Positions 11,415 to 33,448 of a stretch of 64,000 nucleotides of DNA are shown here, piece after piece. The stretch spans positions 3,638 through 67,637 of the forward strand of contig CAYZIC010000001.1 of the NCBI GenBank assembly GCA_964478335.1. Direction: 5' to 3'. The position numbers and the translations under genes are program-made. The notes beneath the pieces were generated by a model that was not told where the DNA came from, searched no databases, and saw only the letters and a list, made by a program, of their open reading frames with translations. Source of the stretch: an uncultured Lentisphaeraceae bacterium. GTDB taxonomy: Bacteria; Verrucomicrobiota; Kiritimatiellia; RFP12; DVOR01. How positions within the stretch are numbered: the first letter of the stretch is position 1; each line of letters starts with the position of its first letter.

Positions 11415-11966
11415 ATGCAGGATCGACCCTTTTATTGGCAAACAGAAGAGCTCATCGTGATTGGGCTTTTTACCGCACTGAGCAAGGTGTCGTCTCTAAT
11501 TATTTCCTTGCTGGGAGGAGGGCCAAATCCCATTACTTTGATGCTTAAGAATGGTATCGCCACGGCACTTTTGATTGTGATGGTGGCGCGAGTCTGTAAG
11601 TTTGGCACATTGGCTCTGTATACGCTCGTGGGTCAGATGATCACCTTTTTGATTGCGGGGGGCTCGTTGATTAGCCTTTTGCCAGGCTTTCTCTTGGGTG
11701 CGATCATCAGCGATGGTCTGATTGCAATCATGGGAGGCTACACCAAGATGCGAGCTGTGGTCTGTGGGGTACTCTTTTACGACTTGTTTGGTCGCATGCT
11801 ATCGCTCTCTTTCTCCTATTTGACGGTGCGTGAAAATCCTGCGCTCTTTATCTTTGGGGCGGCCGTGGTGCTTTTGGGTTATTTAGGGTGTCTCTTTATT
11901 GGTGTGCCCTGTGGTGTTAAGTTTGTAAAGGAGCTCCGCCATGCCGGAATTATTCGAGAGATTTAA
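11415..11966 (+). CDS. ECF-transporter substrate-specific (S) component-like membrane protein
   Basis: 183 aa with about 5-6 TM helices. It starts 5 nt after the upstream stop and overlaps the T component. Confidence 0.5.
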   Translation: MQDRPFYWQTEELIVIGLFTALSKVSSLIISLLGGGPNPITLMLKNGIATALLIVMVARVCKFGTLALYTLVGQMITFLIAGGSLISLLPGFLLGAIISDGLIAIMGGYTKMRAVVCGVLFYDLFGRMLSLSFSYLTVRENPALFIFGAAVVLLGYLGCLFIGVPCGVKFVKELRHAGIIREI

Positions 11967-14315: not shown

Positions 14316-14812
14316 AAGCCGCAATCGTATGTTCCTCTAAGACCGGCAACACGATGAAAGTCGCCCAAGCCATCCACGCCGCCATGCCCGCTGGTACCGA
14401 TCTCTTTGCTGTCGAAGAAGCCGCTGCTGCTGATGGCTATGATCTCATCGTCATGGGTTTTTGGGTCGATCGCGGTATGCCCGACGAAAAGGCCAAGCAG
14501 TACATGAAGACCATCGTAGGTAAAAAGGTCTTTACCTTTTTTACCCTCGGAGCAGACCCTGACTCAAATCACGCAAAGGAGTGCATGGCGAAGTGTTGCG
14601 AATTTTATGGTGCAGACTGCTCCGAAATCGGCAACTTCCTCTGCCAGGGTGCCATTGACCCTAAACTCATCGAGGTGATGAAAAAAATGACCGATGGTCC
14701 TCATGCGCCCACTCCTGAGAGCTTGGCTCGCTGGGCGCGCGCTGCATCTCACCCAAATACTGCAGACTATGAGGCGGCCGCGGCTGCTATCTCTGCCGCT
14801 TTAGCCAACTAA
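14312..14812 (+). CDS. short-chain flavodoxin
   Basis: The N-terminal FMN phosphate loop SSKTGNT is present. The protein is 166 aa and its ATGA overlaps the ATPase stop. Confidence 0.75.
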   Translation: MKAAIVCSSKTGNTMKVAQAIHAAMPAGTDLFAVEEAAAADGYDLIVMGFWVDRGMPDEKAKQYMKTIVGKKVFTFFTLGADPDSNHAKECMAKCCEFYGADCSEIGNFLCQGAIDPKLIEVMKKMTDGPHAPTPESLARWARAASHPNTADYEAAAAAISAALAN

Positions 14813-14911
14813 AGACTCTCCGCAAATCATGCGGTAAACCCTGTGGTGTCCCAACGCTGTTGTTGATCAGAGACACCCATAGTAAAAAACAAAATAAAAA
14901 GGAAACTCATC

Positions 14912-16012
14912 ATGAGTATAAGTAAAAAATCTGGTTTCACGTTGGTGGAACTCCTCGTGGTCGTGGCAATCATCGCCGTTATTGGTGCTGGCGTCGCTGT
15001 GACCTATCAACGCCTTGATGACAAGGCCAAAACGTCCGTCGAAATCTCCGACGTCTCTATCCTCAAAAAGGTCATCAAGCACTGGAGCGCAATCAATGAT
15101 TACAAGTTGGTCAACGAGATGGACTCTTTGATCGATAGTCAAGGCAATCTCTACACTGCTGGGGACTTCGAAGGTATGGGTGGTTCAGTTGCCAATAAAT
15201 ATGGCAAAGGCTTAAATGGTCCCTTTGGTGCGACGCTCATGGTTGAGCAGGCGCCAGATGAGATCGTCGAGACCTTGGCTACCAGTGGCATGACCCTCAC
15301 TTATAAGCACATCGCTGATGCGACTGATGCGAATGACTCAACGTGGGAAGCCAATATGATGGGCGGTGGTGTTGATGTCAAGAATACCCGCTGCACGCTC
15401 GTCGGTAAAGACGCATTGGTAGACGCTAATGCTCTCGTGGACGCAGGTAAGAAGACCGCTGACGATTTCGTTAATGGTGCCATTACCATCAATAAAAAAG
15501 AGTACAAAACTCTTGACGCGTGGCAAAAGGCCTACAGCGATGCCGAGAAGATTACAGATTCCAACCCTGTTGACAAGCTCGCATTCATCTATCCCGGTGG
15601 CGGTGCTTCGATGGCTATGGGACCTAACACAATCACAATGCCGATGAACTTGACCGATGAAATCATTAGCAACTGTGGGTTCGATCCTGAAGACATTGTC
15701 AAACCCGGCGAAGAAGCTAGCAAGCCGACGGCTAAGTACTACTTGATCGCAATGGGTCTGGGACGTTTTAGCTCGATCTATAGCGGTAAGTCAATTCGCG
15801 CAGATGCGCCTGCTTATGGCAAGCGTCAAGTGCAGAACGCTGGTGCTTACAACCGCTATGTTGCTGTAATCCGTATCCCTGTCGGTGGCTACAACTCGAT
15901 GACGGGGGCAGGTGAACCCGCCCAAGTGATCGACGTTTTGACGCCTCAGGGTTACTCCGTGGCTGCTCTCCGCGACAACTTGGTTAAGGACGAGGACAAG
16001 ATCCGCGACTAG
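14912..16012 (+). CDS. prepilin-type N-terminal cleavage/methylation domain protein (long pilin/pseudopilin)
   Basis: A class III signal KKSG|FTLVELLVVVAIIAVIGAG with Glu at +5 is present. An AAGGAAA RBS precedes the start. Confidence 0.8.
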   Translation: MSISKKSGFTLVELLVVVAIIAVIGAGVAVTYQRLDDKAKTSVEISDVSILKKVIKHWSAINDYKLVNEMDSLIDSQGNLYTAGDFEGMGGSVANKYGKGLNGPFGATLMVEQAPDEIVETLATSGMTLTYKHIADATDANDSTWEANMMGGGVDVKNTRCTLVGKDALVDANALVDAGKKTADDFVNGAITINKKEYKTLDAWQKAYSDAEKITDSNPVDKLAFIYPGGGASMAMGPNTITMPMNLTDEIISNCGFDPEDIVKPGEEASKPTAKYYLIAMGLGRFSSIYSGKSIRADAPAYGKRQVQNAGAYNRYVAVIRIPVGGYNSMTGAGEPAQVIDVLTPQGYSVAALRDNLVKDEDKIRD

Positions 16013-16082
16013 TACTGATACACGATGCCCAGAGTCACCATCTGGTGTCTCTGGGGCATTTCTTTTAAATAAGGATTAACTG

Positions 16083-16589
16083 ATGAAAGCTGCAATTATA
16101 TGTTCTTCTAAAACGGGCAATACGATGAAGATCGCCCAGGCGATTCAAGCCGCCATGCCCGAGGGCACGCCCCTCTTCCCCATTGCCGAAGCACCAGACC
16201 CGGCTGCATATGATTTCATCATCATGGGATTCTGGATAGATAAGGCTGCGCCTGACCGCAAGGCAAAGGCCTACATGAAGACGCTCACAGACAAAAAGGT
16301 CTTCACCTACTTTACCCTCGGCGCAGTGCCGCATGGTGACCATGCACAACGCTGTTTACGTAATAGCACCAAAGCGTATGGTAAGGGCTGCACCGAGGTG
16401 GGCACCTTCCATTGTCAGGGAGCCATTGATCCTAAGTTGATCAAGATCATGCGGTGGCTATTCCCCTTTGGCCCTCACGCCAATACCGAAAAGAATCGTG
16501 CACGGTGGGCTGAGGCTGCCAAGCACCCAAATCAAGATGACTGCTCTGCTGCGGTAGAGGCTATCAAGCACGTTTTACAGGCACTCTAA
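16083..16589 (+). CDS. short-chain flavodoxin, paralog of 14312-14812
   Basis: About 60% identical to the first flavodoxin, with the same SSKTGNT loop. Confidence 0.75.
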   Translation: MKAAIICSSKTGNTMKIAQAIQAAMPEGTPLFPIAEAPDPAAYDFIIMGFWIDKAAPDRKAKAYMKTLTDKKVFTYFTLGAVPHGDHAQRCLRNSTKAYGKGCTEVGTFHCQGAIDPKLIKIMRWLFPFGPHANTEKNRARWAEAAKHPNQDDCSAAVEAIKHVLQAL

Positions 16590-16623
16590 GCACAGTTGCG
16601 TAAATGAGTGGGAAAGGCTTTAG

Positions 16624-17442
16624 ATGATGGAGCAATGTTACCGTTTAGGATTTACCTTGGTCGAGCTACTGGTCGTGATTGCGATTGTGGCGGTCATCGG
16701 GGCTGGGGTATCGGTCTACTATGGTCGTGACAATGTCGATCGTGGTAAACGAGAGATGACACGCCATGAGATGGGGCAAATCAGGCAGGCCTTTCAACAA
16801 TGCTATGCGGATAATAGCATTCAGCTCATGCGCGAGATCACAGAGCATGATTCATTAAAACCCTTGCCAACAACCTCTTTTATCAATACTTTTAAAGCTA
16901 AGCCAGATCAAACCAATCGCCTCTATGGGATGGTGAATTTTTTTGAAAGGTATGGTCTCTGGTGTCTCAAGCAACCTGCTATTCGAGATGTTGCCTCAGG
17001 GAGATTGATTACCTTTAAACCTTTTGATGCGATGGTAGGTACAGGCTGGCAGGGGCCTTATATCTCAATGAATGCTGGTGCGGCCTGCGTTGTGGATGGA
17101 GACAACTGGGTCAAGCCAGACCCTGACAAAACCACTGAAATCATCCTCCCACAAATTGCCACGCGCTATGAGGGGATTTATCGCATAGTCTACTTTGAGC
17201 ACTGTGAGGATGAGCGTGATACTAGCGAGCCCATTTACCGTCGTCTCTTGTTGGTCTGTGCGGTGAATGATGAGGCGATCGATACTGCTGATGAGTTGCG
17301 CAGCTATTCAGGTAATCGCCGCAAGGGCGATAATGCCTATCCGCTGAACCTCGACACGGGGGTGATTCGTACCTACGATGAGAGCAAGGGCCTTTTCTTT
17401 GTTGAGCTACTCAATCTTGATCAATGGAGGATACAGCAATGA
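16624..17442 (+). CDS. prepilin-type N-terminal domain protein (pseudopilin)
   Basis: RLG|FTLVELLVVIAIVAVIGAG is near-identical to the N-terminus of the 14912 gene. Confidence 0.75.
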   Translation: MMEQCYRLGFTLVELLVVIAIVAVIGAGVSVYYGRDNVDRGKREMTRHEMGQIRQAFQQCYADNSIQLMREITEHDSLKPLPTTSFINTFKAKPDQTNRLYGMVNFFERYGLWCLKQPAIRDVASGRLITFKPFDAMVGTGWQGPYISMNAGAACVVDGDNWVKPDPDKTTEIILPQIATRYEGIYRIVYFEHCEDERDTSEPIYRRLLLVCAVNDEAIDTADELRSYSGNRRKGDNAYPLNLDTGVIRTYDESKGLFFVELLNLDQWRIQQ

Positions 17443-18458
17443 TGCGCCCATGCATGGTTGGCCGTTCGGGGATGACGCTCGTTGAGCTCATGGTTGTCTT
17501 GGCAATCTTAGCTGCCGTGCTGACGACGGTTTCGGTTTCAACGATAGCCTCGCGAGACCGTCAGCGAGTCGAGAAGACTCAGCGTCAAGGGCGCGCGATG
17601 GTAGAGGCCCTGACGCGTACTGATGGGCTCTCTTTTATTTCCGACTTTGGTCGTCTCCCTCAGACGATTGACGAGGTCAAGTGGCTGTGCCAGCGGGCGA
17701 TCTTTAATAGCACATCGACGATACATGAAGCCCCCCTGTATCAACTCTTGCCGATCTGGCGTGCAAACACCGCCTCATCTACAGGAGCCGTATCACTAAA
17801 GACTTTTATTGGCAGCTCCAATTCCGTTAAGACAGCACTCGAGGCGGCACATTTGGGGGCGGGCTGGCGTGGACCATACACCTCTGCGGTGGTGCTACAG
17901 ACTGAAACAGAGGAGGACAAGACCGAGTCTCGTCTCTGTGATGCATTTGGCGGGGATTGGGTCTTTGAGGAGGGATCGGGCACGACTGATGCTCAGCTAA
18001 TTAGCTATGGCCGTGACCAGCTCAAAGACGACGCGGGTCAAGAGCGCAGCTGGCAAGATAGTGATCAGCGATTCGCCATACACCAAGCTCAAATCTCCCA
18101 GCAAGTTGAATTGGCTGTGTCACTCACCTGGGGTGAGGAGCAATTAGCATCTGCATCGATCTATTACTTTGAGCCAACCCTCATTGGTAAAAACACGTCC
18201 TATAGCATGGACATCCAGTGCCTTTATCATACGACTCAGACAAATCCAGCATCCTTTGTGATTAGCCCTGCGCAACCTGTGACCCTGAATGGGAATATCC
18301 CCAATCCATCAGACTCAAGTGGTTTGACAATTGGTCTGCGAGCGATTGTTGTCACTGCCACAGATACAAACAGCAACAAAGCGATCTCTGCGGTGCAGTA
18401 TGTGCATTTAAAGCCGGGCACCAACCACCTCGACATTTCCCTTTATCCACTAAAATAA
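17424..18458 (+). CDS. prepilin-type N-terminal domain protein (pseudopilin/minor pilin)
   Basis: SG|MTLVELMVVLAILAAV has the prepilin hydrophobic segment with E5. Confidence 0.7.
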   Translation: MEDTAMMRPCMVGRSGMTLVELMVVLAILAAVLTTVSVSTIASRDRQRVEKTQRQGRAMVEALTRTDGLSFISDFGRLPQTIDEVKWLCQRAIFNSTSTIHEAPLYQLLPIWRANTASSTGAVSLKTFIGSSNSVKTALEAAHLGAGWRGPYTSAVVLQTETEEDKTESRLCDAFGGDWVFEEGSGTTDAQLISYGRDQLKDDAGQERSWQDSDQRFAIHQAQISQQVELAVSLTWGEEQLASASIYYFEPTLIGKNTSYSMDIQCLYHTTQTNPASFVISPAQPVTLNGNIPNPSDSSGLTIGLRAIVVTATDTNSNKAISAVQYVHLKPGTNHLDISLYPLK

Positions 18459-19850: not shown

Positions 19851-20710
19851 ACCTCTCCCTCAAAAAGACTAATAGTTGGCACTGGCTCGCCATTGCATTG
19901 ATCCATGGTATTGCCTTTTCTTATTGTGGCTGGCGTGCTTGTCTCGACCGTGTCGAGACGCAATGCCTACCACAAATCGCCAAAGAAGAGCAACACTTGA
20001 TTCAATTAAAGGCTATGGACGCATTTGAGCCAGATCGTCTTGATCGTGAAACCAAGCGTCTTGAGCAGCAACTTGACACCTTGCAAAAACGCCTGGATCA
20101 GGCAGGCACCAAGCCTATCCCTCAGGGTAAAGATGCGGTCGTGGTGATCAAAAATAGCATCGATCAGGCATTGGGGCATCATCAGCTACAGGTGGCTAAG
20201 TGCAATTTAAGCCTCTCTCTCTCGACGCAAGATCTGTCACGTGAGGCCTCACCCAAGGCAATTCCGCAACCTCGACCAGTCCAGCAAAAAGTGCCTCGCC
20301 TCTCTCAGGAGGAATTTATCCTCTCCTATGATTTAGATAAGATGCTCGCATCGTATGAGCAAATCCCCGATAAGGCACTGCGTAAGCAAATGGTCCAGGA
20401 GGAGAAGCGGCGCTCGCATCGGATCTTGGCACAGCAGGCCAAACTGAGAGCGCAAGGTGTCACGATCAAAGCAAAAGCTAATCCAGCTCGGGTCGTACAA
20501 GCACCCGTGAAGCCGACCTTTAAGCCCAATCTGCCCTTTAAAACTGTAGAGATCAACTATGTCGTGCGGGGGGACTTTAGGCAGATGTTTCTCTTTCTCG
20601 TCAAGCAATCGTTTTTAAAGCAGTCCTACCACTTTAAGCAGATCCAGGTCGTGCAGTTCGATGATGGTGAGATGGGCATGGCATTTGTTTTACAGGTGAA
20701 TTATCTATGA
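19847..20710 (+). CDS. PilO-like bitopic pilus assembly protein
   Basis: An N-terminal TM and coiled coil are present. The gene overlaps its neighbours at both ends (operonic). Confidence 0.45.
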   Translation: MNLSLKKTNSWHWLAIALIHGIAFSYCGWRACLDRVETQCLPQIAKEEQHLIQLKAMDAFEPDRLDRETKRLEQQLDTLQKRLDQAGTKPIPQGKDAVVVIKNSIDQALGHHQLQVAKCNLSLSLSTQDLSREASPKAIPQPRPVQQKVPRLSQEEFILSYDLDKMLASYEQIPDKALRKQMVQEEKRRSHRILAQQAKLRAQGVTIKAKANPARVVQAPVKPTFKPNLPFKTVEINYVVRGDFRQMFLFLVKQSFLKQSYHFKQIQVVQFDDGEMGMAFVLQVNYL

Positions 20711-22203
20711 CACACCCAAACATGACACAGGTTGACTTACGTCGTATCGCCCCATCACAGGCGATCCTTGACCTCGTACCTGCCAAGGTGGCTCGCGGGC
20801 TCAATGTATTGCCGATTTATCTCGATGAGCAGATGCTGACAGTCTGCGTGGCTGACCGAGCGAACTATTCAATCCAAGAGAAAATCGAGCGAATCCTCCC
20901 ACAGTATAGTGTGCGCTTGGTCGAGCCGCTCGAGCCGCTCTCCTTACGAAAGGCTTTGCGGGATAACTATCCTGATGCACTGCTCAATGGAGAATTGGAT
21001 TTACCAGAAAATTTATTCTTTTACATCCTCAATCGAGCACTGACTCGTAATGTCTCAGATATCCATATCACGCCGACAGAATCAGGCGCTCGGGTGCGAT
21101 TGCGTCTTGATGGTAAGCTCCATGCCGATCGGGTGATCCCTGCAGAAACTGCCGCAGAGCTCTCCTCCTATGTCAAGGTCGCTGCAGGGCTAGATATTTC
21201 GGAGAAGCGTGTTCCTCAAGATGGCAATATCGATACGCGTATTGGTGGGCAGGAGGTCAGCTTGCGCGTGGCGACCGTGCCAACGATTTATGGAGAGCAT
21301 ATCACGCTGCGTATCCTCAGCCAAGCTGCTGAGGCACTATCGTTGGATTCACTAGAGAGCCTCGGGATGCATCGTAAGCAATTGGCACTTTTTACCGCAG
21401 CCTTGCAAGCACCTAATGGTGTGGTAATTATCTCAGGGCCGACAGGCTCAGGCAAGACGACGACGCTCTATGCTGCACTGCGCAAGCTAACTCAGTCTGA
21501 CACGCTCCATGTCATGAGCATCGAGGATCCAGTAGAGAAACCTGTCGCTGGGGTCACTCAGATTAAGATCGATAGCAAGCAAGATCGAGTAAGCTTTGAG
21601 GGTGCGCTGCGTAGTGTCTTGCGTCATGACCCAGATGTCGTCATGGTGGGTGAGGTGCGTGACGGGGAGACTGCTACGACGGCTTTGCGTAGTGCGCTTA
21701 CGGGGCATTTGGTTTTTACGACGCTGCACACCAATAATGCGCCTGGCATTTTGACACGATTGGTGGATTTGGGAGTACCTGCCTATTTAGTCGCAGCGAC
21801 CTTACGCTTGGCGATCGCTCAGCGACTATTGCGCAGACCCTGCCACGAATGCATGTCATGGGTGCTTGCTGATGAGGCGACTTGTCGGGTATGTGGATGG
21901 GACCCTACGCATCCTCCCAAAATCCCCAAGGTGCACGGCTGTGCCTATTGTGGTATGAAAGGCTACTCCGGGCGTACTGCCATCTATGAGATCTTGCCCA
22001 TTACCGATCAAGTCCGTAAGTTGCTTTTGTCTGGCAAAAGCGAAATGGAGATCTATCAGTATCTCCGTGGCCGCCAGCCTGAGTTAACTCTGATGGGTGA
22101 TGGACTAGCCAAAGTCATCGAGGGAGAAACGACGCTAGAGGAGCTGCGCTCGACCGTTTGTGAAGAGGGCGATTCACTCGATGAGAATAAGGATCTCTTA
22201 TGA
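20707..22203 (+). CDS. pilB: type IV pilus assembly ATPase (GspE/PilB family)
   Basis: Walker A GPTGSGKTTT is present. The Asp box, Walker B and His box pattern are present. A tetracysteine Zn motif CHEC...CRVC...CAYC is present. Confidence 0.85.
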   Translation: MTHPNMTQVDLRRIAPSQAILDLVPAKVARGLNVLPIYLDEQMLTVCVADRANYSIQEKIERILPQYSVRLVEPLEPLSLRKALRDNYPDALLNGELDLPENLFFYILNRALTRNVSDIHITPTESGARVRLRLDGKLHADRVIPAETAAELSSYVKVAAGLDISEKRVPQDGNIDTRIGGQEVSLRVATVPTIYGEHITLRILSQAAEALSLDSLESLGMHRKQLALFTAALQAPNGVVIISGPTGSGKTTTLYAALRKLTQSDTLHVMSIEDPVEKPVAGVTQIKIDSKQDRVSFEGALRSVLRHDPDVVMVGEVRDGETATTALRSALTGHLVFTTLHTNNAPGILTRLVDLGVPAYLVAATLRLAIAQRLLRRPCHECMSWVLADEATCRVCGWDPTHPPKIPKVHGCAYCGMKGYSGRTAIYEILPITDQVRKLLLSGKSEMEIYQYLRGRQPELTLMGDGLAKVIEGETTLEELRSTVCEEGDSLDENKDLL

Positions 22204-23444
22204 TTACGGATATGCCGACCTATAAGTATGTGGGAGTCAAGGCGAGTGCGAAGGTTTCGGGCACGCTTGCAGCGGAGAATGAATCGCACCTCAGAGGGCT
22301 TTTGCGAGAGCAGGGGATTCTCCTTATTTCGGCCAAGCAGATCAAAATCTCGGGTAAGGATACGCTTAAAGTGCGTGCGAAATGGGAGCGTCACATCTCG
22401 AATTTTTTTATCAAACAAACGGAAATCGAGCAGGCGATGTTGCAACTGGTCATCCTGCTCAAAGGGGACATCGCCATTGTTGAAGCGTTTGAGCAGGCGG
22501 CCCGATTGGCTAAGGGCTACATGGCATCTGCTCTTTTTGAGGTCGCCTTAAGTGTCAAGCAGGGGAGCTCGCTCTCTAAGGCGATTCGATTGGCTTTACC
22601 ACAACTCGGTGAGCTCTATCAGGGATTGATTGGTGTGGGTGAGGTCAATGGCTCGCTGCCTCAAATGTTTGCCTATTGCGTGAGGTTGATGCAACAAAAA
22701 CGCAAAATGCGCAATAGCATGATCCGCGCGATGACCTACCCTGCGATAGTCGTCTTGCTAGGGGCTGGGGTTGGTTATTATGTGAGCACTGTTTCAATTC
22801 CGCAGATTGCATCGGTGATGGGGGGCGAGTCCGATAAGCTCCCCCCTGTGACTCGGGCTCTACTTGATACCAGTGACTGGATTGCAGACAAAGGATATAT
22901 GCTCATTATCTATCCTTGCCTCGTGACGATCATCCTACTAGTGATACGACTATTTAAGCCATGTGCTTTGGTAATGGATCACCTATTCCTTTGGATTCCG
23001 ATTATTGGCAAAGCGTTATGCTTCGCAGAGAATGCTCTCTTTAATAAAACCATGGGAATCTTGATCCGCAGTGGGATCTCTGTGGTCGAGTCGCTCGATC
23101 TGATCGAGGCGACGCTGACGAATGCTTTTTACAAGACTCAAATCGATGGTATCAGACGAGCTGTCCGCGCAGGTAAGATGTTTTCCGACGGATTGGCTCA
23201 ATCGGCGTTGCAGCGACTCTCGCCACTAACCCCTGCGCTGGTGCAAGTCGGTGAAAGCTCGGGAAATATGGATGAGGGCTTACACTATGTCGGAGAGTAT
23301 TATGAGGATGCTCTAGAGCGCCGTCTTGATTTGATGGCTAAACTGATCGAGCCAACTCTCGTCGTCGTCGTCGGGGGGATGGTTGCCTTTGTCTATGTCG
23401 CATTTTTCATGGGCATGGCCGCAATGAATACCGCTACACTTTAA
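22200..23444 (+). CDS. pilC: type IV pilus platform protein (GspF/PilC family)
   Basis: 414 aa with two repeated GspF-type domains and 3 TM helices. It overlaps the pilB stop. Confidence 0.8.
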   Translation: MITDMPTYKYVGVKASAKVSGTLAAENESHLRGLLREQGILLISAKQIKISGKDTLKVRAKWERHISNFFIKQTEIEQAMLQLVILLKGDIAIVEAFEQAARLAKGYMASALFEVALSVKQGSSLSKAIRLALPQLGELYQGLIGVGEVNGSLPQMFAYCVRLMQQKRKMRNSMIRAMTYPAIVVLLGAGVGYYVSTVSIPQIASVMGGESDKLPPVTRALLDTSDWIADKGYMLIIYPCLVTIILLVIRLFKPCALVMDHLFLWIPIIGKALCFAENALFNKTMGILIRSGISVVESLDLIEATLTNAFYKTQIDGIRRAVRAGKMFSDGLAQSALQRLSPLTPALVQVGESSGNMDEGLHYVGEYYEDALERRLDLMAKLIEPTLVVVVGGMVAFVYVAFFMGMAAMNTATL

Positions 23445-23479: not shown

Positions 23480-24079
23480 ATGATATCTAAATACACGTCT
23501 CTTATCCTCTTAGGCATGGCAACGATGGTTGCTATACCCATGGATCTCTCGGCACAAGAGCCCTCCAAGCCCAAGGCGCCTGTAGCACAGGCTAGCGCAA
23601 AAGTCTCGCAAAAGAATAAACCTGAGCCAGTGCCATTAGTCCAGCCTCCTCAAACGTTGCTCGACGCAGAGGGCAACCCAGAGCTCGAGCTCATTAACCC
23701 ATTTGCTAAGGGGCGCTCTCGTGAGGTTGAAACCGATGGCTCTATGGGGAGATTGCAACGAACGACCCTAGGTGAAGTCTCCAATGATTTTGCCTTGCTG
23801 GCGATCGTCGTTCCTGAAGATGATACAGTTGAGCCGATGGCTCTGATCCGTCAAAATCAGGATGCAGGCCCTATTTTAGTCCGGCCTGGCGATCTCATCC
23901 GTACCCGTGAGCCTACTAAGCGAGGCAATAGATGGGGGCGGAGCAAGGAAGAATTGGCACGAGAAAAGCTTAAAGGCAACTTCACTTTTTACCTCTACAT
24001 CAAAAATATTTTACCGACACATCTCGAGGTTTATCATAATAAGAAAAACCCCAATGAGACAACCATCATCACCCTCTAA
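23480..24079 (+). CDS. PilP-like periplasmic pilus assembly protein
   Basis: A signal peptide is present. The gene lies immediately upstream of the secretin. Confidence 0.4.
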   Translation: MISKYTSLILLGMATMVAIPMDLSAQEPSKPKAPVAQASAKVSQKNKPEPVPLVQPPQTLLDAEGNPELELINPFAKGRSREVETDGSMGRLQRTTLGEVSNDFALLAIVVPEDDTVEPMALIRQNQDAGPILVRPGDLIRTREPTKRGNRWGRSKEELAREKLKGNFTFYLYIKNILPTHLEVYHNKKNPNETTIITL

Positions 24080-24110: not shown

Positions 24111-25916
24111 ATGTTAACGATAAGAAAAAACTTTACACGCATGGTCTTACTGGGACTAACGTGCCTAGCAATTGAGCAAGGTGTTGCTTTTGCGCAACCT
24201 ACTCCAAACGTACCTGGACGTAATCTACCGATGATTAAATCGCTCATGATTCGCGAAGCACCAGCAGAGTATGCGATGTGGCTACTCGGAGAAACATGGG
24301 GGCGACATATTGTAGTTAATGAGTCAGCAAAAAAGGTCAACGTCCGAGTCTTCCTCAGGGGGATTGACTGTGCGAGTGCACTCAAGGCGATCTGCCACGC
24401 TCATGGACTTTGGTATCGTGAAGATCCAGAGAGCGATGTCATCTACGTGCAAACTCTCGATGAATATATCCGCGGTAGCTCGCTCAACGATAAAAAGTTT
24501 GTCTCAACTGTCACAGTCGTCTATCCGCGAGCTGAAGATATCGCAGCAAGCTTGCAAGAGGTCTTTAAGGACATGGTTGCTTATACTGCGCCAGACGAGT
24601 ATAGCAACGACCCCAGCGATGATATTGACAAGGCTATTGAGCGAATGCAACAGCTCGCCGAGCAATCAACCATCGTCGAATCGAGCACATCGAGCACACG
24701 CAGCTCTAGTCGTAGCTCTAGCGGATCGAGTAGTCGGTCGCGTCGTAATAATGACAATGACGATGGCATTCAGCGCGTCCGGGAGTACTATGATGACCTT
24801 GAGTCTCTCAATAAGAATAACACCCAGATCACTGCGGGCTTAGATGGGCGCCCCACTCCGAGCCTGCCAGGAGTCGTCTTTCTCGCCGTCGAGCGTGCCT
24901 CCAATACCATCCTCTTGCGTTCCTCTGATAAAGAGGTCTTAAAGCAGGTTGAGGAGATGATTGCCACGCTCGATAGACCGACCTCTCAAGTACTCCTCGA
25001 AGTGCAAGTACTCGAACTCGACACCACGGACAAGGAAGCTCGCAAGCTGGATATCAACTTCCAGGGACATGGTGGCGACTACACTGGGTCATTCGCGGAT
25101 ACCGCTTTGGGTGCAAAATCGGGTGTTCTGCAGATGCTCAGGAAAGATCTTCAGTTGAAACTTGAATTTCTTGATAGCAATGACAAAGTGCGTCGCTTGG
25201 CAACACCGAGCCTCATGGTCGCAGACCTGGAAGCTTCTCGTATCTTTGTCGGATCAGAAACGACGTTGCTCATGAGTGTCGAGGAAACCGTGGTCACAGG
25301 GAGTGGTAATAACCCTACGACAACCGCTGCAAGTAACCCCGAAACCGATCGCCGTGATATCGGCACCACGCTCGTCATCACGCCCAAGATCCATGGCGAT
25401 GGCACTGTCACCGTCCGCATTATGCAAGAAAGCGCAAGCATTGGCGCTGAAAAGGACATTAACTACGGCACGGATGAGCAGGGAAATCAAAAGACCTTTA
25501 CCAGCACAGATGTCAAGAAGCAAACGATCTCCTCTACGGTCGTAGCCAAGTCTGGTGCAACAGTTTCTTTGGGTGGTCTTATTAGCCATGAAACGGTGGA
25601 TAGCGTCTCACGCGTGCCGATTCTGGCTGACCTCCCCTATATCGGGAAGTATCTCTTTGAGCGCACCAGCAAGGCTGAGATCGAAAAGGAGCTCATTGTC
25701 CTCATTCGCCCTTATGTCATCTTGACACCTGATCGCGCAGAAAAAATGAGTCAACATTTCCTGAATAGTGCAGTCAATGATTCCTTATTACTCAAAGAGA
25801 TCACCGAACGCATGGGGCATAAGGAGGCATTGCTTAAGCCAGAAATTCTCGAATTTATTCAACAGAGCACACCTATCGCACCCGTGACACCCGAATCAAA
25901 GAAAGATCCCCAATGA
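24111..25916 (+). CDS. pilQ: type IV pilus secretin (PilQ/GspD family)
   Basis: A signal peptide (MLTIRKNFTRMVLLGLTCLAIEQGVAFAQ) starts at the internal ATG at 24111. The C-terminal secretin domain is present (VPILADLPYIGKYLFERTSKAEIEKELIVLIRPYVI). A Ser-rich linker is also present. Confidence 0.8.
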   Translation: MLTIRKNFTRMVLLGLTCLAIEQGVAFAQPTPNVPGRNLPMIKSLMIREAPAEYAMWLLGETWGRHIVVNESAKKVNVRVFLRGIDCASALKAICHAHGLWYREDPESDVIYVQTLDEYIRGSSLNDKKFVSTVTVVYPRAEDIAASLQEVFKDMVAYTAPDEYSNDPSDDIDKAIERMQQLAEQSTIVESSTSSTRSSSRSSSGSSSRSRRNNDNDDGIQRVREYYDDLESLNKNNTQITAGLDGRPTPSLPGVVFLAVERASNTILLRSSDKEVLKQVEEMIATLDRPTSQVLLEVQVLELDTTDKEARKLDINFQGHGGDYTGSFADTALGAKSGVLQMLRKDLQLKLEFLDSNDKVRRLATPSLMVADLEASRIFVGSETTLLMSVEETVVTGSGNNPTTTAASNPETDRRDIGTTLVITPKIHGDGTVTVRIMQESASIGAEKDINYGTDEQGNQKTFTSTDVKKQTISSTVVAKSGATVSLGGLISHETVDSVSRVPILADLPYIGKYLFERTSKAEIEKELIVLIRPYVILTPDRAEKMSQHFLNSAVNDSLLLKEITERMGHKEALLKPEILEFIQQSTPIAPVTPESKKDPQ

Positions 25917-26590
25917 TCGATGATGCTCCATGTTGTCACGTGCTCCCCACATTGCTCAAGCATACACTCATCATTGTCTGTGTGGGCATGATGAGCAGTG
26001 GGTGCGCACTAACGCAACCAACACCTCCAAAGACTGAGCATCCCCCACTGTCTGAGCAAGAGGCTCTCCAGCAGGCCATTACGCTCGTCGCAGAGGGGCT
26101 CCCCAAACAAGCTGTGCCACAATTACTTGCGATACGGGACAATACTCAAGATCCCGCCATCAAAGCCAGTGCAATTCAAACATGCGCAAAGGCTTTTGCT
26201 GCACAAGGTGATTTTAAATCAGCAATCAATGTCCTCAGTCCCTTGCCCCCCCTTGTCTTGCGTGAGGAGCAGGCAATCTCAAATGCGATGGCTGGTGAAT
26301 ATTACTTGCGCATGGGGGCTTACAAGCTCGCAATCCCGTGCATTGAGCGAGCACTCTACAATGAGCTCCCTAAAAAGCACACAGATTGGCGGGCTGCGGC
26401 TTTCTTCAATTATGGTAAGTGCGCCCTCTCGCTCAATATGCCACGACGTGCGCAGGCTCTCTTTAGTGAAGCGCAACTACAATTTAAACACCTCAATCAC
26501 CCGCAAGCGGTCATACTGTGCCAAACGCTCCTCACAACAATCGACCGTGCAATACTCCAACAAGAAAGCCCCCCCCCCCATGTCAAATAG
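25913..26590 (+). CDS. TPR-repeat lipoprotein, PilF/PilW-like pilotin
   Basis: A lipobox (MSSGC) and TPR-like helical repeats are present. The gene overlaps the secretin stop and the pilT start. Confidence 0.5.
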   Translation: MIDDAPCCHVLPTLLKHTLIIVCVGMMSSGCALTQPTPPKTEHPPLSEQEALQQAITLVAEGLPKQAVPQLLAIRDNTQDPAIKASAIQTCAKAFAAQGDFKSAINVLSPLPPLVLREEQAISNAMAGEYYLRMGAYKLAIPCIERALYNELPKKHTDWRAAAFFNYGKCALSLNMPRRAQALFSEAQLQFKHLNHPQAVILCQTLLTTIDRAILQQESPPPHVK

Positions 26591-27644
26591 TGAAATCCTA
26601 CAAGGGCTCTTTGATCTAATCGTGGAGAAAAACGCATCCGACTTACATTGGTGCGAGGGCGAGCCATTGAGACTACGTATCCACGGACAGCTTGCCATCG
26701 TCGAGCACCCTCTCCCAGAAAACATCGAGTTTCAAGGCCTCACCGAAACGCTTATCGGGCACAAGACCTTTGATCGCTTTCTCGAAACACGCGAATATGA
26801 TGGAGCTATCACCATCGCAGATGGTCGCCGCCTCAGAGTCAATATCTATTTTAAGCGCGACAAGGTCGCGTGGGCCATTCGCCTCCTCCCCAATACCTTT
26901 ATGACCTTTGAGGAGCTCGGTCTCCCTCTCGACCTCTGCCAAGAAATTACTCAAATGCACCAAGGGCTCGTCTTGATCACTGGTGCTACAGGCTCTGGTA
27001 AGACGACTACTCTCGCATCGATCCTCAATCAAATCAACCAGCAGCGCCACGCACACATCTTCACAATCGAAGACCCCATTGAGTATATCCATACCTCCAA
27101 ACAATGCCTCGTCTCCCAGCGGGAAGTCGGCAGAGACACCCGATCATTTCACGATGCACTCAAAAGCGTCTTGAGAGAAGATCCCGATATCGTGCTGCTT
27201 GGCGAAATGAGAGACCGAGAATCGATGGATGCGGCTCTGACGCTTGCAGAAACTGGACACTTGACATTTGCCACACTCCACACCTCTGGTGCCGTCGAAT
27301 CTATCGCTCGTATTATTAGCAACTTTGATGCCATGGAGCAAGCTCAAGTGAGAGAGCGTATAGCAAGCAACTTAAAGATCGTGATTACCCAGCAACTCAT
27401 TCCCTGGTCTAACCATCAAGGTCGATCCCTTTGTGCCGAGATCATGGTCTCAACCAAGGCGATTCGCGCGATGATCCGGGATCAAAAAGAACGCCAACTC
27501 CCCGCACTCCTCGAGACGGGCACCGAGCAGGGGATGCTGACGATGGATCGATCGCTTGTGACTCTCGTCAAGAATCATCACATCACCCTTGATGAGGCTC
27601 TCCTCTACACGACTGACAAGGATGCCCTCCTCAGATTTGTTTAG
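26580..27644 (+). CDS. pilT: twitching motility/retraction ATPase PilT
   Basis: 355 aa from the internal ATG at 26580. Walker A GATGSGKTTT and the PilT-type motifs (EDPIEY, HLTFATLHT) are present. The upstream extension listed in the ORF track is an overlap artefact. Confidence 0.85.
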   Translation: MSNSEILQGLFDLIVEKNASDLHWCEGEPLRLRIHGQLAIVEHPLPENIEFQGLTETLIGHKTFDRFLETREYDGAITIADGRRLRVNIYFKRDKVAWAIRLLPNTFMTFEELGLPLDLCQEITQMHQGLVLITGATGSGKTTTLASILNQINQQRHAHIFTIEDPIEYIHTSKQCLVSQREVGRDTRSFHDALKSVLREDPDIVLLGEMRDRESMDAALTLAETGHLTFATLHTSGAVESIARIISNFDAMEQAQVRERIASNLKIVITQQLIPWSNHQGRSLCAEIMVSTKAIRAMIRDQKERQLPALLETGTEQGMLTMDRSLVTLVKNHHITLDEALLYTTDKDALLRFV

Positions 27645-27706: not shown

Positions 27707-28447
27707 ATGGAAACGTTTATTGCTTTGGTACTTTTTGTCGCATGGTTGCAAACATGCTTAAAATTCGCCTTGATTTCTCGCATATGGGGATTTTTATTTA
27801 TTGTGATTATCGGGTGTTTGCCCTTTGCCAATCACTCCCTATTGATCGCCAGCAGTTTGCAAGAGCAGATGGCGATGGTATGCTCGGAATCATTTTTACA
27901 AGCTTGGTGTGTCATTTTGGTGGTGCAGGAGTTTCTCGTCTTTATTATGGGGCTCTCGCTCTTATCCGCTTATCAGTTAGAAGAGAAAATACACTGGTGG
28001 AAAATGGTTGTTTTTGTGCCGTCATTTTTAATTTATCCTGGCGTGGTCTTTCTCCAGATGCAGAGCTATAATCACTTTGTGATGGCTGACTTTGATTGGG
28101 TTTGTGCTGGAGTAAGTGCCGTCTTGGTATTCACCTCTTTAGCTGTGATTGAGGGAATGCGTTGGTATAAACGCCACGATTTTGATGGTGCGATTTTATT
28201 ACTCTTTAATAGTGAGTTTGTCATTACTATATTAGCTGTCTTTTTACCAATTGCAGCGGTCGCATCTGACCGCCTGCAGATTGGTGAATGGCAGATTAAT
28301 TGGCAAGACGCTCAGCCATTACTTTATCTGTTAATCCCTGTATTGCTCTCTGCGTGTGGGTATGCGCTATGGCAATTGGGGGTGCAGATCTATTACCGCC
28401 GTATACATCATTATCATCAAGTGAATCAAAGGAATAACCATGTCTAA
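27707..28447 (+). CDS. polytopic membrane protein of unknown function (first gene of the chelatase operon)
   Basis: 246 aa with about 6 TM helices. The sequence is AT-rich relative to its flanks and overlaps the next gene start. Confidence 0.5.
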   Translation: METFIALVLFVAWLQTCLKFALISRIWGFLFIVIIGCLPFANHSLLIASSLQEQMAMVCSESFLQAWCVILVVQEFLVFIMGLSLLSAYQLEEKIHWWKMVVFVPSFLIYPGVVFLQMQSYNHFVMADFDWVCAGVSAVLVFTSLAVIEGMRWYKRHDFDGAILLLFNSEFVITILAVFLPIAAVASDRLQIGEWQINWQDAQPLLYLLIPVLLSACGYALWQLGVQIYYRRIHHYHQVNQRNNHV

Positions 28448-29027
28448 CATCACCCAAATTCTTAATCTAATCTCAAATAGTTTACTCCTGCCTGTTATCG
28501 TTTTACTCTTAATTGCTGTCGTTTATGCGCTGATTGCGTTGGGTGGGTTTTGTGCCAGTAGTATTATGCTTTTGATTGAGCAGCGCAAGAATCGCACATT
28601 CTTACGTCAGATCCATCGTGGGGAGCTAGATGTGGTCAATCAAGAGGATTGCTCTCTAGCCCGACACGTGGCTTACTTTATCGAGAAAGAATGGAATGAA
28701 ATCGAATGCGAAAAGTATATCTCCGAGCATCTCGAGCGTTATGATCGCGAACTTGAGCGGCATCGTTTTTTCATCAAGATCGGGCCGATGCTTGGTTTGA
28801 TGGGAACTCTCATCCCCATGGGACCGGCTTTAGCAGGCTTAGCCTCTGGAGATATTGGCTCAATGGCCTATAATATGCAAATCGCTTTTGCGACAACAGT
28901 ACTTGGATGCTTTATCGCAGGCGTGTCGGTCTTGATCATTTCGGTAAAGAAGCATCACTATACCGCTGAAATCTCAAACCTACGGTATCTATTAGACCGT
29001 CAATTGGAGGGAGGAGCACATGCGTAA
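28440..29027 (+). CDS. exbB: MotA/TolQ/ExbB-family proton channel protein
   Basis: The C-terminal motif GPMLGLMGTLIPMGPALAGL resembles the TolQ/ExbB GLLGTVxGM region. Three TM helices are present. Confidence 0.55.
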   Translation: MSNITQILNLISNSLLLPVIVLLLIAVVYALIALGGFCASSIMLLIEQRKNRTFLRQIHRGELDVVNQEDCSLARHVAYFIEKEWNEIECEKYISEHLERYDRELERHRFFIKIGPMLGLMGTLIPMGPALAGLASGDIGSMAYNMQIAFATTVLGCFIAGVSVLIISVKKHHYTAEISNLRYLLDRQLEGGAHA

Positions 29028-29364
29028 GGCAAGGCGATATGAGCCATTTACAGAGCAAGATGATGATAATCCACTGAGCAATTTGGTGAACTTATTTGAC
29101 GTTGCAATGGTTTTTGCCGTAGCACTCATGGTCGCATTTGCGATACAAAGCCGTATGTCCGAGTTTTTAACCGCTCAAGATGCGACATTTGTTAAAAATG
29201 CAGGCTCGCCAGACATGGAGATCATTGTCAAAAAAGATAACAAAGTCACACGATATAAATCAGAGCAATCGACCACTGGCAATGGCAAAGGCCAGCGCGT
29301 GGGAGTCGCTTATCGATTAGAATCAGGTGAAATTATTTATGTACCAGAAGGAGATACAAAGTAA
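29020..29364 (+). CDS. exbD: ExbD/TolR-like (DUF2149-like) small bitopic protein
   Basis: A single N-terminal TM (LVNLFDVAMVFAVALMVAF) resembles the ExbD anchor. The gene overlaps the exbB stop. Confidence 0.45.
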   Translation: MRKARRYEPFTEQDDDNPLSNLVNLFDVAMVFAVALMVAFAIQSRMSEFLTAQDATFVKNAGSPDMEIIVKKDNKVTRYKSEQSTTGNGKGQRVGVAYRLESGEIIYVPEGDTK

Positions 29365-29365
29365 A

Positions 29366-32300
29366 ATGAAAACTAAATTATTTAAACCATTACTCGCATG
29401 TGCTATTGTCTTGGCTATAGTGGGTGCGATTTTTGCCTACATTCGTTATGCGGCACCTACTCGCATCGCCTTTGTTGGATATCCTGAGTATATGATTGCA
29501 CAATCTTTGGATCAGCAGATTGACCCTGAGACGCAAGTCGATGTTGTTAAGTGGACAGAAAAGTCAGGTGCCGAGCTGCGTCACTATGATGCTATGATTT
29601 TCTTTGGTATGGGGCTTAAGTTTACCCCAGAGCAAGAGGTTATGATCAAATCGTTAAAAGCACCCCTATACGTAACTGCATCGACACGTCCCGAAACAAA
29701 ACTGGACACCTTTACCCCAGAGCAGTCAAAGCAAGTCCAAGCCTATTTGGGTGGTGGGCAGGCTAACTTTAAAGAGCTCCTACGCTACCTACGCTACACG
29801 GTCGATGGTAAGCGCATCAATGCTATTGCACCAAAGGCCCCCATTAAGATTGAGCATAAGCCATTTTTTCATGTCAAAGACCAAGATCAGTTTGCCAATT
29901 ATGACGACTATATGGACTTTTACAAAAAGAGCGGTCGATATAATGCCTCGCATCCCACAGTCTGTATCCTCAGTGGTAATGGCGGGGGCGCACTTGAGAT
30001 GCTGATTGATGCCTTTGAAAAACGTAACTTTAATGTCATAGGCACCTCGCTCTTTGGTTCTTTCCTTGAGGAAATGCAAAAAATAAAACCTGACCTTTTA
30101 ATCTATCAGCCACACGGACGCATTGGTCGCGGTGACCCAGACAAAACCTATGAGCTACTCAAGACGCTTAATGTCCCGTTACTCTGCCCAATCAAAGTCG
30201 GTCAACCCTATGATGAGTATCTCAAAGATCAGCGAGGGATGACTGGGGGGATGCTCAGTCAGAGCATCACGATGCCAGAGCTTGATGGCGGCATTGTCCC
30301 CTACGTCCTCTCCGCTCTTTACAAAAATAAACGAGGTCTTTATGTCTATAAAATGATTCCTGAGCGCCTCGAACGCTTTACTGAAATGGCCGTCAAACTC
30401 GTCGCGCTTAAGCGCAAGGCAAACTTTGACAAACGCATTGGTATCATTTATTACAAGGGACCAGGCAAAAACTCTACTGAAGCAGGCAGCATCGAGGTTG
30501 GAGATTCAATGCTCAATACCCTCCGCTATCTCAAAGAGCAAGGTTATGATACTGGAGACTTGCCCAAGTCTGTCGCCGCACTCCAAGAGCAGATCCAGCA
30601 AAATGGTGCCAATTTCAATACGTATGCCGCAGGTGCAAGAGAACGCTTTGTCAAGGAGGCCTCCATCCAAACGATTTCACCTGACACCTTTGCAAAGTGG
30701 GTCAAAAAAGCAATGCCAGATGACCTCTATGATGAGGTACGCAAACAATATGGCGACTTCCCAGGACAGTATTATGATGATGGACAAGGTAATCTCGCTC
30801 TCAGCCAGCTACGATTTGGTAAAATTGTCCTCATGCCACAAAGTGCCGCAGGTATCGGTAGCGATGATAATAAAATCGTGCATGGTGTCAAAATGGCACC
30901 TCCACACCATTACATTACCACCTATCTCTATCTCCAAAATAACGTTGATGCCATTATCCACTTTGGCACACACGGCAGCTTAGAGTTTACCCCGTGGAAA
31001 CAAGTCGCCCTCTCCTCATACGATTGGCCTGATGTCTTAATTGGATCGCTCCCACATTTCTATCTCTACGTCTGTAATAACATCGGTGAGGCTATTATCG
31101 CCAAGCGCCGTAGCTATGCCACAATGATGACACACCTCACGCCGCCTTTTATGCGTGCTGACGGATATGGCGAGCTCAATCAGCTAGACGAAAAAATCCA
31201 CTTCTACGCCAGCTGCGAGAATAGCGAGCTTAAGGCTGAATATGAAAAATCCATCATTGCTGTCGCCAAAGCTGAAAAATACGATGTCGACCTTAAGCTC
31301 TCTGACGACTTCCAAAAAGGCACCCTTACCCCAGAGGACTTCACCCGTCTACATGACTTTATTCATGAAATCAAGCTCTCCAAAGTCAATCGTGGCCTTT
31401 ATGTGATTGGCAGACCTTATACCCAAGAGGAGGCTCAAGAGACTGCGGGGCTCATGCTCGTCGATGTCATCGCTGATCAACTCTTTAAAAATGACCTGAC
31501 AGCGGGTAAAGTCCGCGAGGAGCAGCGCGATCAAGCTGGATTCTTTGAGCATCGCTACCGTGCCGCTGCACAAAAGCGCATCACAGACATCTTTGCAAAC
31601 CCAGACCGCTACCGCGATGGTAAGCTGAGTGTCAGACCGGCAGAAACCAAACCTGTCAAACCACACAAGATGCCAACTGCGACTATGTCCAAGAAAAAGC
31701 ACCCCTCTGCAGTACCAGCCAATATACCCGCTGCAATGAAAAAAATGATGGCTGCAAGGCAAGCTCCCCAAGCACCCAAACCTCAGCCCACCATTGAGCA
31801 ACAGACCCTCAAGGCAAAAGATGACCTCCTCATCTCTACTCCTCTTGAGCTCAAGACCATTGCCAATGCCCTCAATGGAGGATACATTATCCCAACATCA
31901 GGAGGTGACCCAATCGGCAATCCCGCCTGCGTACCTACGGGTAAAAATATGTATGGTATCGACCCTGAGCGCACCCCTACCAAAGAAAGCTTCGCCCTCG
32001 GCAAAAAGCTTGCCAAGCAGCTGATTCAAGCCAAGATTAAAGCCACTGGCAACTTCCCCAAAAAAGTAGCCTTTTCACTCTGGGGGGGCGAATTTATTCG
32101 TACACAGGGATCTGATATCGGTGAAATCTTTTATTTACTCGGGTGTGAGCCTATTTGGGATATGCGTGGCACCGTCAACGACGTACGACTGATCCCAATT
32201 GATCAACTCAAGCGTCCCCGTATCGATGTCATTGTACAGACCTCTGGGCAATTTCGAGGCGTTGCAACCAGTCGCATGCGCCTCATTGACAAAGCTGTCA

Positions 32301-33448
32301 AGCTCGCAGCTACTGACCCAGATACGCCTGATGCCAACAATTACGTTAAAGAGGGCTCTAGCATCATCGCTAAGTCTCTCATCAAAGCAGGCCTCACCCC
32401 AGAGAAAGCAAAAGCACTCGCCGATGCACGACTCTTTGGTGGAGTGGGTGGCAACTATGGCACCAATGCTCAAGGTATGATTCAATCTGGAGGCAAATGG
32501 GATGATCCAGACATTATTGGTGAGCTATACCTCAATAACATGGGTGCCCTGTATACCGATGACCACTGGGGAGAATTTGTGCCTGGTGCCTTCCGCGCGG
32601 CTGTACAAAATACCGATACTATCGTCCAATCCATCTCATCAAACTCATGGGGGACTCTTTCACTCGATCACGTCTATGAGTTTACTGGTGGTCTCAGCAG
32701 AGCTATTAAGACTGCAACTGGCAAAGATCCTGATGCCTACTTTAATAATATGCGCACGCCTGGACGAGCCAAAGTGCAAGAAGCTGGCGAAGCAATCATG
32801 ATCGAGGCTCGCGCATCTGTCCTCAATCCCAAATACCTTAAGGAAATGATGCAAGAGGGACCGGGCGGGGCAAGCCACTTCGCTGCCGTTTTCCAAAATA
32901 CATTTGGGTGGGAAGTCACCAAGCCGGACCTACTCGATCAACACCTCTGGGACGAGTATAAAAATGTCTTCATCGACGACGAACACAAACTTGGCATGCA
33001 AGAGTACTTTAATAAAAAGAATCCATATGCTTATCAAGAAATGACCGGTGTCATGCTCGAATCTGTCCGTAAAGGATATTGGCAACCCAATGAGCAAACC
33101 ATCAACAAGATCGCAAATATACACGCTGAGCTCGTTCGCAAGCATGGTGCTGGATGTAGTGGCTTTGTCTGTGACAATCCCAAACTACGCAAGATGATCG
33201 AAGCCGCCATCAAAGACCCACAAACGAAAGCCGACTACCAAAAAGCAATCAAAGAGGTCTTAGGGACTACCAAGAAACCAAAATCCCAAAAGGATAAGGA
33301 TGTTAAAGGGCAAGTCCTTAAAGAACAAAAGATCACTCCAGATCAAGTTACCAATAAAAACGAAAAAGCGATTTACGTAATAGGTGGCCTCGTCTTGCTA
33401 GCCATCCTACTCGTGCTGACAGGCACACGACGAAGCCGAGCCAAATAA
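29366..33448 (+). CDS. cobN: CobN/ChlH-family (metallo)chelatase large subunit, membrane-anchored at both termini
   Basis: The family-diagnostic motif IHFGTHGSLEFTPWKQ is present. The length (about 1360 aa) fits CobN/ChlH. TM segments sit at the N-terminus and the C-terminus. An RBS AGGAGA lies upstream. Confidence 0.75.
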   Translation: MKTKLFKPLLACAIVLAIVGAIFAYIRYAAPTRIAFVGYPEYMIAQSLDQQIDPETQVDVVKWTEKSGAELRHYDAMIFFGMGLKFTPEQEVMIKSLKAPLYVTASTRPETKLDTFTPEQSKQVQAYLGGGQANFKELLRYLRYTVDGKRINAIAPKAPIKIEHKPFFHVKDQDQFANYDDYMDFYKKSGRYNASHPTVCILSGNGGGALEMLIDAFEKRNFNVIGTSLFGSFLEEMQKIKPDLLIYQPHGRIGRGDPDKTYELLKTLNVPLLCPIKVGQPYDEYLKDQRGMTGGMLSQSITMPELDGGIVPYVLSALYKNKRGLYVYKMIPERLERFTEMAVKLVALKRKANFDKRIGIIYYKGPGKNSTEAGSIEVGDSMLNTLRYLKEQGYDTGDLPKSVAALQEQIQQNGANFNTYAAGARERFVKEASIQTISPDTFAKWVKKAMPDDLYDEVRKQYGDFPGQYYDDGQGNLALSQLRFGKIVLMPQSAAGIGSDDNKIVHGVKMAPPHHYITTYLYLQNNVDAIIHFGTHGSLEFTPWKQVALSSYDWPDVLIGSLPHFYLYVCNNIGEAIIAKRRSYATMMTHLTPPFMRADGYGELNQLDEKIHFYASCENSELKAEYEKSIIAVAKAEKYDVDLKLSDDFQKGTLTPEDFTRLHDFIHEIKLSKVNRGLYVIGRPYTQEEAQETAGLMLVDVIADQLFKNDLTAGKVREEQRDQAGFFEHRYRAAAQKRITDIFANPDRYRDGKLSVRPAETKPVKPHKMPTATMSKKKHPSAVPANIPAAMKKMMAARQAPQAPKPQPTIEQQTLKAKDDLLISTPLELKTIANALNGGYIIPTSGGDPIGNPACVPTGKNMYGIDPERTPTKESFALGKKLAKQLIQAKIKATGNFPKKVAFSLWGGEFIRTQGSDIGEIFYLLGCEPIWDMRGTVNDVRLIPIDQLKRPRIDVIVQTSGQFRGVATSRMRLIDKAVKLAATDPDTPDANNYVKEGSSIIAKSLIKAGLTPEKAKALADARLFGGVGGNYGTNAQGMIQSGGKWDDPDIIGELYLNNMGALYTDDHWGEFVPGAFRAAVQNTDTIVQSISSNSWGTLSLDHVYEFTGGLSRAIKTATGKDPDAYFNNMRTPGRAKVQEAGEAIMIEARASVLNPKYLKEMMQEGPGGASHFAAVFQNTFGWEVTKPDLLDQHLWDEYKNVFIDDEHKLGMQEYFNKKNPYAYQEMTGVMLESVRKGYWQPNEQTINKIANIHAELVRKHGAGCSGFVCDNPKLRKMIEAAIKDPQTKADYQKAIKEVLGTTKKPKSQKDKDVKGQVLKEQKITPDQVTNKNEKAIYVIGGLVLLAILLVLTGTRRSRAK

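Follow-up and report, generated by a model that had tools for sequence, protein, structure and literature searches.

The pilus gene cluster and its last two genes

We analysed a 64-kb stretch of DNA, referred to here as the window. It contains a type IV pilus / type II secretion-like cluster of overlapping genes, and a run of 11 C residues (C11) is located close to the end of this gene chain (Table 1). Besides the genes listed in the table, the cluster contains a flavodoxin gene between the first two prepilin-motif genes and two genes of unknown function, which are listed between the prepilin-motif genes and the GspE/PilB gene.

Table 1 Features of the pilus cluster and of the lipoprotein/pilT junction (window positions).
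Feature	Position	Strand	Remarks
Three prepilin N-methylation motif genes	14912..18458	+	14912-16012, 16624-17442, 17424-18458
GspE/PilB-type assembly ATPase gene	20707..22203	+	
GspF/PilC-type platform protein gene	22200..23444	+	
Conserved 199-aa protein of unknown function	23480..24079	+	Between gspF/pilC and secretin; kept in relatives
Secretin gene	24111..25916	+	Start set at signal-peptide Met
TPR lipoprotein gene, 225 aa	25913..26590	+	Lipobox, TPR fold; pilotin-like role suggested by position
AAGAAAG, degenerate Shine-Dalgarno (SD) remnant	26562..26568	+	In relatives AAGGAG, AGGAGG, AGAGGA
C11 homopolymer	26569..26579	+	Encodes Pro220-222 of the TPR lipoprotein, with the third base of Ser219 and the first of His223
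TPR end/pilT start overlap, 11 nt	26580..26590	+	…CAT GTC AAA TAG vs ATG TCA AAT AG
pilT, 354 aa, PilT/PilU-family type IVa pilus ATPase	26580..27644	+	TIGR01420

The product of the gene which follows the run scored 404.5 bits against the curated model TIGR01420 (cutoff 319.1), and its motifs, including GATGSGKT (Walker A) and the DPD box, are invariant in our alignment. Its ATG was confirmed by 27 homologues which begin within a few residues of it. By family membership the protein is a PilT/PilU ATPase, with a predicted role in retraction and twitching, and the score bears out a first-pass annotation which had placed the tract where a TPR lipoprotein gene meets pilT.

The upstream gene encodes a protein with Pfam TPR matches and a G30-C31 lipobox which is invariant in 9/9 family members. 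A word-based protein search with this protein returned the query itself only, and a profile made from three orthologues gave the 9 family members. The AlphaFold2 model, for which eight orthologues were used (pLDDT 85), contains nine helices across residues 48-218, followed by a disordered tail at residues 219-225 (pLDDT about 55); this tail is encoded by the C-run and its sequence varies among the orthologues. The first-pass annotation had called the protein a pilotin. Features expected of a pilotin were found in the signal peptide with its lipobox Cys and in the all-helical TPR fold, and the gene lies immediately downstream of the secretin gene in an order which is conserved in relatives. However, the protein failed the PilW model (TIGR02521; 18.8 bits against a cutoff of 154), a PDB profile search found generic TPR proteins only and no PilF or PilW, and the top 50 PDB matches from Foldseek were again generic TPR proteins (KLC, MamA, LGN, LapB) with no PilF/PilW. 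The family and fold matches do not uphold the label, and we use "pilotin-like" for a role suggested by the lipobox, the TPR fold and the conserved place after the secretin gene. It should also be noted that a C7 run at 26246-26252 encodes a family-invariant P-L-P motif of this protein (…SPLPPLV…); the only other C7 run of the window is at 3196.

The pilus cluster is surrounded by cobalt/cobalamin-type genes (11941-16589 and 27707-33448). Upstream of it are a CbiQ gene and a double ABC ATPase gene, two Flavodoxin_3 genes (14312-14812 and 16083-16589) are interleaved with the pseudopilin genes, and downstream there are an unknown membrane protein, a MotA/ExbB-like protein, a DUF2149 protein and a 1373-aa CobN-type chelatase. 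A prophage-like block occupies approximately 55560-63898 on the - strand and includes a portal (62243-63898, phrog_21, 3e-26), a head maturation protease (61062-62243, phrog_94, 4e-23), an ORF of 345 aa in the capsid position without a PHROG match and a tape-measure-like protein (55560-57074). Within the head maturation protease gene there is a 27/54-nt tandem repeat (61279-61466). The only Rfam match in the window was one tRNA gene (8867-8939).

The C-run and the pilT ribosome-binding site

Direct reading of the window gives a run of exactly 11 nt: positions 26564-26590 are GAAAG-CCCCCCCCCCC-ATGTCAAATAG, and the flanks of the run are …CAACAAGAAAG-CCCCCCCCCCC-ATGTCAAATAGTG…. The run occupies positions -11 to -1 relative to the pilT ATG (26580-26582), which follows directly with zero intervening bases. 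The eleven C's reported in the first-pass annotation are therefore real, but its interval of 26569-26582 took in the ATG, and the single base which it placed between tract and start codon does not exist. It had also given PPP as the C-terminus of the upstream protein, whereas the ORF actually finishes ...QQESPPPHVK*, with S-PPP-H encoded by the run within the disordered tail and the TAG stop at 26588-26590, 11 nt inside pilT.

C11 is the only homopolymer above 8 nt in the window and is 3 nt longer than the next. An iid model predicts 0.017 C runs of at least 11 nt per window and a first-order Markov model 0.005. We counted 62, 15, 3 and 1 C/G runs of lengths 5, 6, 7 and 8, respectively, a drop of approximately 4-fold for each extra base; there were none of 9 or 10 and the next was the 11-nt run, which is thus a clear outlier and far above chance expectation. 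Only one further G/C run of at least 8 nt is present in the window, so no set of such tracts is visible.

A run of this kind could still be a neutral accident, in which a GC-rich spacer and tail drifted by substitution into a homopolymer, slipped variants being rare and purged, and which persists through the disordered C-terminal tail and a non-essential spacer with no regulatory role. The disorder and the sequence variability of the tail among orthologues are in keeping with this reading, as are the lack of other long tracts in the window and the tolerance of protein termini for simple repeats under relaxed selection (PMC3315296). It has to account, however, for a run which is 3 nt beyond the next-longest in 64 kb at an expectation of about 0.005-0.02.

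We also examined the strength of ribosome binding. An SD-like tetramer was found at -18 to -7 in 37/51 starts (mechanical starts) vs a background of 14%, and the median anti-SD duplex energy of 42 starts was -5.9 kcal/mol vs a background of -2.3, these energies assuming the canonical anti-SD sequence as the window is without a 16S gene. SD sites are strongly used by this genome. At pilT the energy is -0.7 kcal/mol, and only one of the 42 starts is weaker, whereas in 4/5 relatives it is between -6.0 and -12.1 kcal/mol. A canonical SD is present at most related junctions, the sequence before the ATG being AAGGAG-CGCCGG, AGGAGG-GGCGGCCGG or AGAGGA-AACACCGG in relatives vs AAGAAAG and C11 here. 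The loss of an SD site which relatives keep, in a genome which uses SD sites so strongly, is a further point against a neutral accident.

As SD pairing at pilT is near zero, its translation probably depends on coupling to the lipoprotein ORF. The start of the TPR gene likewise has little SD pairing (-0.9 kcal/mol), and its ATG overlaps the secretin stop by 4 nt (ATGA), so that the last two genes of the operon both appear to be coupling-dependent. No significant RNA structure was predicted at the junction (z = -0.28), and no sigma-70-like promoter or terminator was found at the C-run. These properties would also suit a static arrangement, in which a C-rich, SD-less leader allows very little independent initiation at pilT, PilT is held in a fixed ratio to the lipoprotein via coupling and the length of the run is irrelevant. 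The nearly nil pairing at pilT, a leader free of significant structure and of an internal promoter, and the equally SD-poor, overlapping start of the TPR gene all fit such tuning. On the other hand, any SD-less spacer would suffice for it, making a homopolymer unnecessary, and relatives couple pilT with an SD present; we regard static tuning as unlikely.

We compared the junction with 20 related pilT junctions, of which 16 were distinct. In 20/20 of these pilT and the upstream gene overlap by 4, 8 or 11 nt or are separated by a gap of 1-2 nt. The coupling of pilT proposed in the first-pass annotation receives genuine support from this overlap or near-abutment in every relative and from the near-absent SD pairing. 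The nearest relatives (loci L081, L082 and L096/L097) carry a TPR orthologue upstream with the identical 11-nt overlap, and in 7/8 orthologues the TPR protein ends in a tail …E-x-x-P-D-[A/V]-x* of the same length as ESPPPHVK*. This shared overlap and tail length indicate that C11 is the native frame.

No run above 5 nt was found at the 20 related junctions, which come from other species whose PilT shares no more than 72% identity. In this comparison across species, the first-pass annotation having put forward one with related strains as a check, the tract is missing from every related locus, and there is no sign of conservation or recurrence. Across the related junctions compared, the C-run is specific to this lineage. 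As the tail is of the same length as in the orthologues, the probable origin of the run is substitution within a GC-rich spacer and tail, not expansion. Both the restriction to one lineage and the unchanged tail length are in keeping with a neutral accident.

The same comparison bears on the quality of the record. The sequence comes from one source, as a single 79.6-kb draft contig, and homopolymer length is error-prone on some platforms, so the true run might be of a different length, shorter or interrupted. However, C11 leaves two intact ORFs and reproduces both the 11-nt overlap of the nearest relatives and the tail length of 7/8 orthologues, while an error of +/-1 would have broken the frames. 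With the frame, the overlap and the length of the tail all in their ancestral state, a +/-1 length error is disfavoured, and we consider a sequencing or assembly artefact very improbable. A chimeric assembly join was ruled out, as both the frames and the synteny across the tract agree with the relatives.

The PilT and TPR proteins of this species were each found in one copy among ~15 billion proteins, both on the same 79.6-kb NCBI contig, and the next PilT was 72% identical. Exact-protein look-ups with PilT, the TPR protein and a further protein (P0001) gave no record, and a degenerate DNA pattern for the PilT N-terminus had no match in metagenomes. A second, clade-specific DNA pattern led to 13 loci. 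A scan of genome contigs with a PilT alignment, which was swamped by generic Walker-A and Asp-box patterns, gave one close locus only (L001). The best-named relatives are Kiritimatiellae, Lentisphaerota and Verrucomicrobiota MAGs, which places the organism in the PVC group.

Predicted consequences of a change in run length

We computed the reading frames which would result from runs of different length. Runs of 8, 11 and 14 give the native arrangement. At lengths 7, 10 and 13 the TPR ORF is in frame with pilT and yields a fusion of 575-577 aa; for C10 this is a 576-aa fusion of the lipoprotein and the cytoplasmic ATPase, and no stop remains near the pilT ATG. At lengths 9, 12 and 15 the tail gains 10 aa (…PCQIVKSYKGSLI*) and the stop lies 40 nt inside pilT. 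The frames agree with the first-pass statement that +/-1 slippage shifts the upstream tail and the position of its stop; the in-frame TPR-PilT fusion at -1 (C10) had been overlooked. The pilT ORF itself is uninterrupted at every length of the run, so any effect on PilT would have to act via initiation or coupling and via sequestration in the fusion. No TPR-PilT fusions were found among the 9 TPR family members of the profile or among the PilT homologues, which indicates that the fused state is not a normal form.

Programmed ribosomal frameshifting or transcriptional slippage for a deliberate fusion was rejected, as a lipoprotein joined to a cytoplasmic ATPase would be topologically senseless and no natural fusions are seen. 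One protein of 613 aa (P0074) which could have been a natural fusion is actually a PilT-PilT tandem.

Our preferred reading is that the C-run is a slippage-prone site whose slipped states lower the amount of free PilT and give rise to reversible variants in pilus function, to which we assign a probability of roughly 0.4. In this mechanism the C-run would have taken the place of the pilT ribosome-binding site and spacer at the overlap with the TPR gene. In the C11 state the lipoprotein would be made separately with its normal tail and its stop 11 nt inside pilT, and pilT would be translated by termination-reinitiation, with ribosomes ending at the TPR stop and restarting. In the C10 state the lipoprotein-ATPase fusion would form and the nearby stop needed for coupling would be gone, while in the C12 state the tail would be extended by 10 aa and the stop, 40 nt into pilT, would allow weaker reinitiation. 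Both C10 and C12 are predicted to reduce free PilT, with C10 additionally perturbing the lipoprotein, and the outcome would be reversible subpopulations with altered pilus function.

The steps of this proposal differ in standing. The tract, its rarity, the frames, the SD loss and the conserved coupling geometry are observed; from the lost SD and the coupling we infer the effect of +/-1 on the PilT level, and a useful slippage rate, a requirement for coupling and the resulting phenotype are presumed. A slippage switch which touches both genes is mechanistically plausible, the first-pass interpretation is supported in part, and the locus is a candidate contingency locus. The stronger form of the proposal, in which the C-run at the gene overlap would be a three-state switch of the lipoprotein and PilT together, acting via fusion or lost reinitiation coupling, we regard as doubtful. 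The neutral accident would carry the cost of a -1 product which is a drastic fusion of two essential pilus proteins, a liability which selection normally removes; given the points on both sides, we find that reading quite possible, if short of an even chance.

The importance of the locus depends on whether the tract varies. If it does, it would extend slippage-based phase variation of type IV pili beyond the classical host-adapted pathogens to an uncultured PVC-group bacterium, by a little-documented route in which a downstream gene is controlled by moving the stop of an overlapping upstream gene, in contrast to ORF truncation or a change in promoter spacing. If the proposed switch is real, the Kiritimatiellota/Lentisphaerota branch of the PVC bacteria would have its first described contingency locus, and one with an unusual, translational-coupling mode of phase variation. 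If the tract is invariant, it would be merely a rare homopolymer tolerated in a disordered tail.

Comparison with known repeat-based loci

Repeat-based contingency loci can be recognised by a G/C homopolymer of slippage-prone length (~7-9 nt or more, a threshold taken from PMC3401435 and PMC4965091), by its over-representation vs neutral expectation, by a gene product or expression which changes at +/-1, by a variable tract at the orthologous site in related strains and, as the defining feature, by length polymorphism observed in the species. At the present locus the run is of 11 nt, 0.005-0.017 such runs are expected, and three frame states were computed. By length, over-representation and frame consequences the locus resembles classical loci of this type and may be a candidate member.

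The closest biological parallel is the poly-G tract of pilC, which underlies phase variation in Neisseria gonorrhoeae and Neisseria meningitidis (Jonsson et al. 1991, as cited via PMC13190605 and PMC5084427). As described in these secondary accounts, both cases involve a G/C homopolymer within a gene for type IV pilus biogenesis, and +/-1 changes the frame, the present one being a candidate switch. By the same accounts the pilC tract lies in the 5' signal-peptide region, acts as a clean on/off switch of one protein and has demonstrated variation. The present tract is located within the final 7 codons of one gene and the leader of the following one, neither protein can be truncated by it, and it would act by fusion or lost coupling.

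With respect to position, the closest parallels are repeats near 3' ends (PMC5084427) and homopolymers in 5'-UTRs (PMC11898584, PMC12721329). In Neisseria meningitidis, simple sequence repeats near the 3' ends of NMB1998 and NMB0039 give alternative C-terminal isoforms (PMC5084427). These resemble the present locus in having a repeat near the 3' end and a C-terminal peptide changed by slippage; here, however, the 3' end overlaps the next start, so that the downstream gene would be affected and one frame is a fusion. Repeats in 5'-UTRs modulate translation (PMC11898584), with examples in the 7G tract 144 bp upstream of Mycobacterium tuberculosis espR (PMC11898584) and in Haemophilus influenzae, in which 5'-UTR repeats tune translation (PMC12721329). 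They share with the C-run a place upstream of a start codon and an expected effect on translation as opposed to the ORF. Those tracts are far upstream and act via UTR folding or RNA processing, whereas the C-run is the SD-to-ATG spacer inside an overlapping ORF, with no RNA structure predicted. The present locus differs in that one tract touches two genes, as the spacer of one and within the last codons of the other.

For mutability, a comparison can be made with Campylobacter jejuni, in which a tract extended from G8 to G11 became 10-fold more mutable, with the mutations shifted towards deletions (PMC3401435). The poly-G/C type and the hypermutable length range (modal G9) are common to both (PMC3401435, PMC4965091), and a deletion bias like that of G11, if present here, would make the fusion the most frequent variant. 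Campylobacter jejuni has ~29 poly-G/C loci per genome, within ORFs (PMC3401435, PMC4965091), in contrast to the one long tract in 64 kb of a PVC-group host.

Two further runs are worthy of note. The second-longest G/C run of the window is a G8 on the + strand at 59974-59981, which is a C8 on the coding - strand. It lies at approximately codons 4-6 (…ITPPK…) of a 110-aa ORF (59665-59997, -), which is preceded by GAGGAGG and, in the prophage-like region, comes directly after the capsid-position gene. For on/off frameshift switching, a location near the 5' end of an ORF is the classical one. Among the related loci, for which 781 kb was fetched, the longest run was 10 nt and only three G/C runs reached 9 nt. 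One of these is a C10 run at L096:2283-2292, approximately 290 nt downstream of the pilT stop where there is no convincing ORF, on a 2.5-kb contig (Logan ERR12075082) from the nearest relative (PilT 72% identical). The presence of one of three such runs on this contig is a hint that the lineage may be prone to poly-C tracts.
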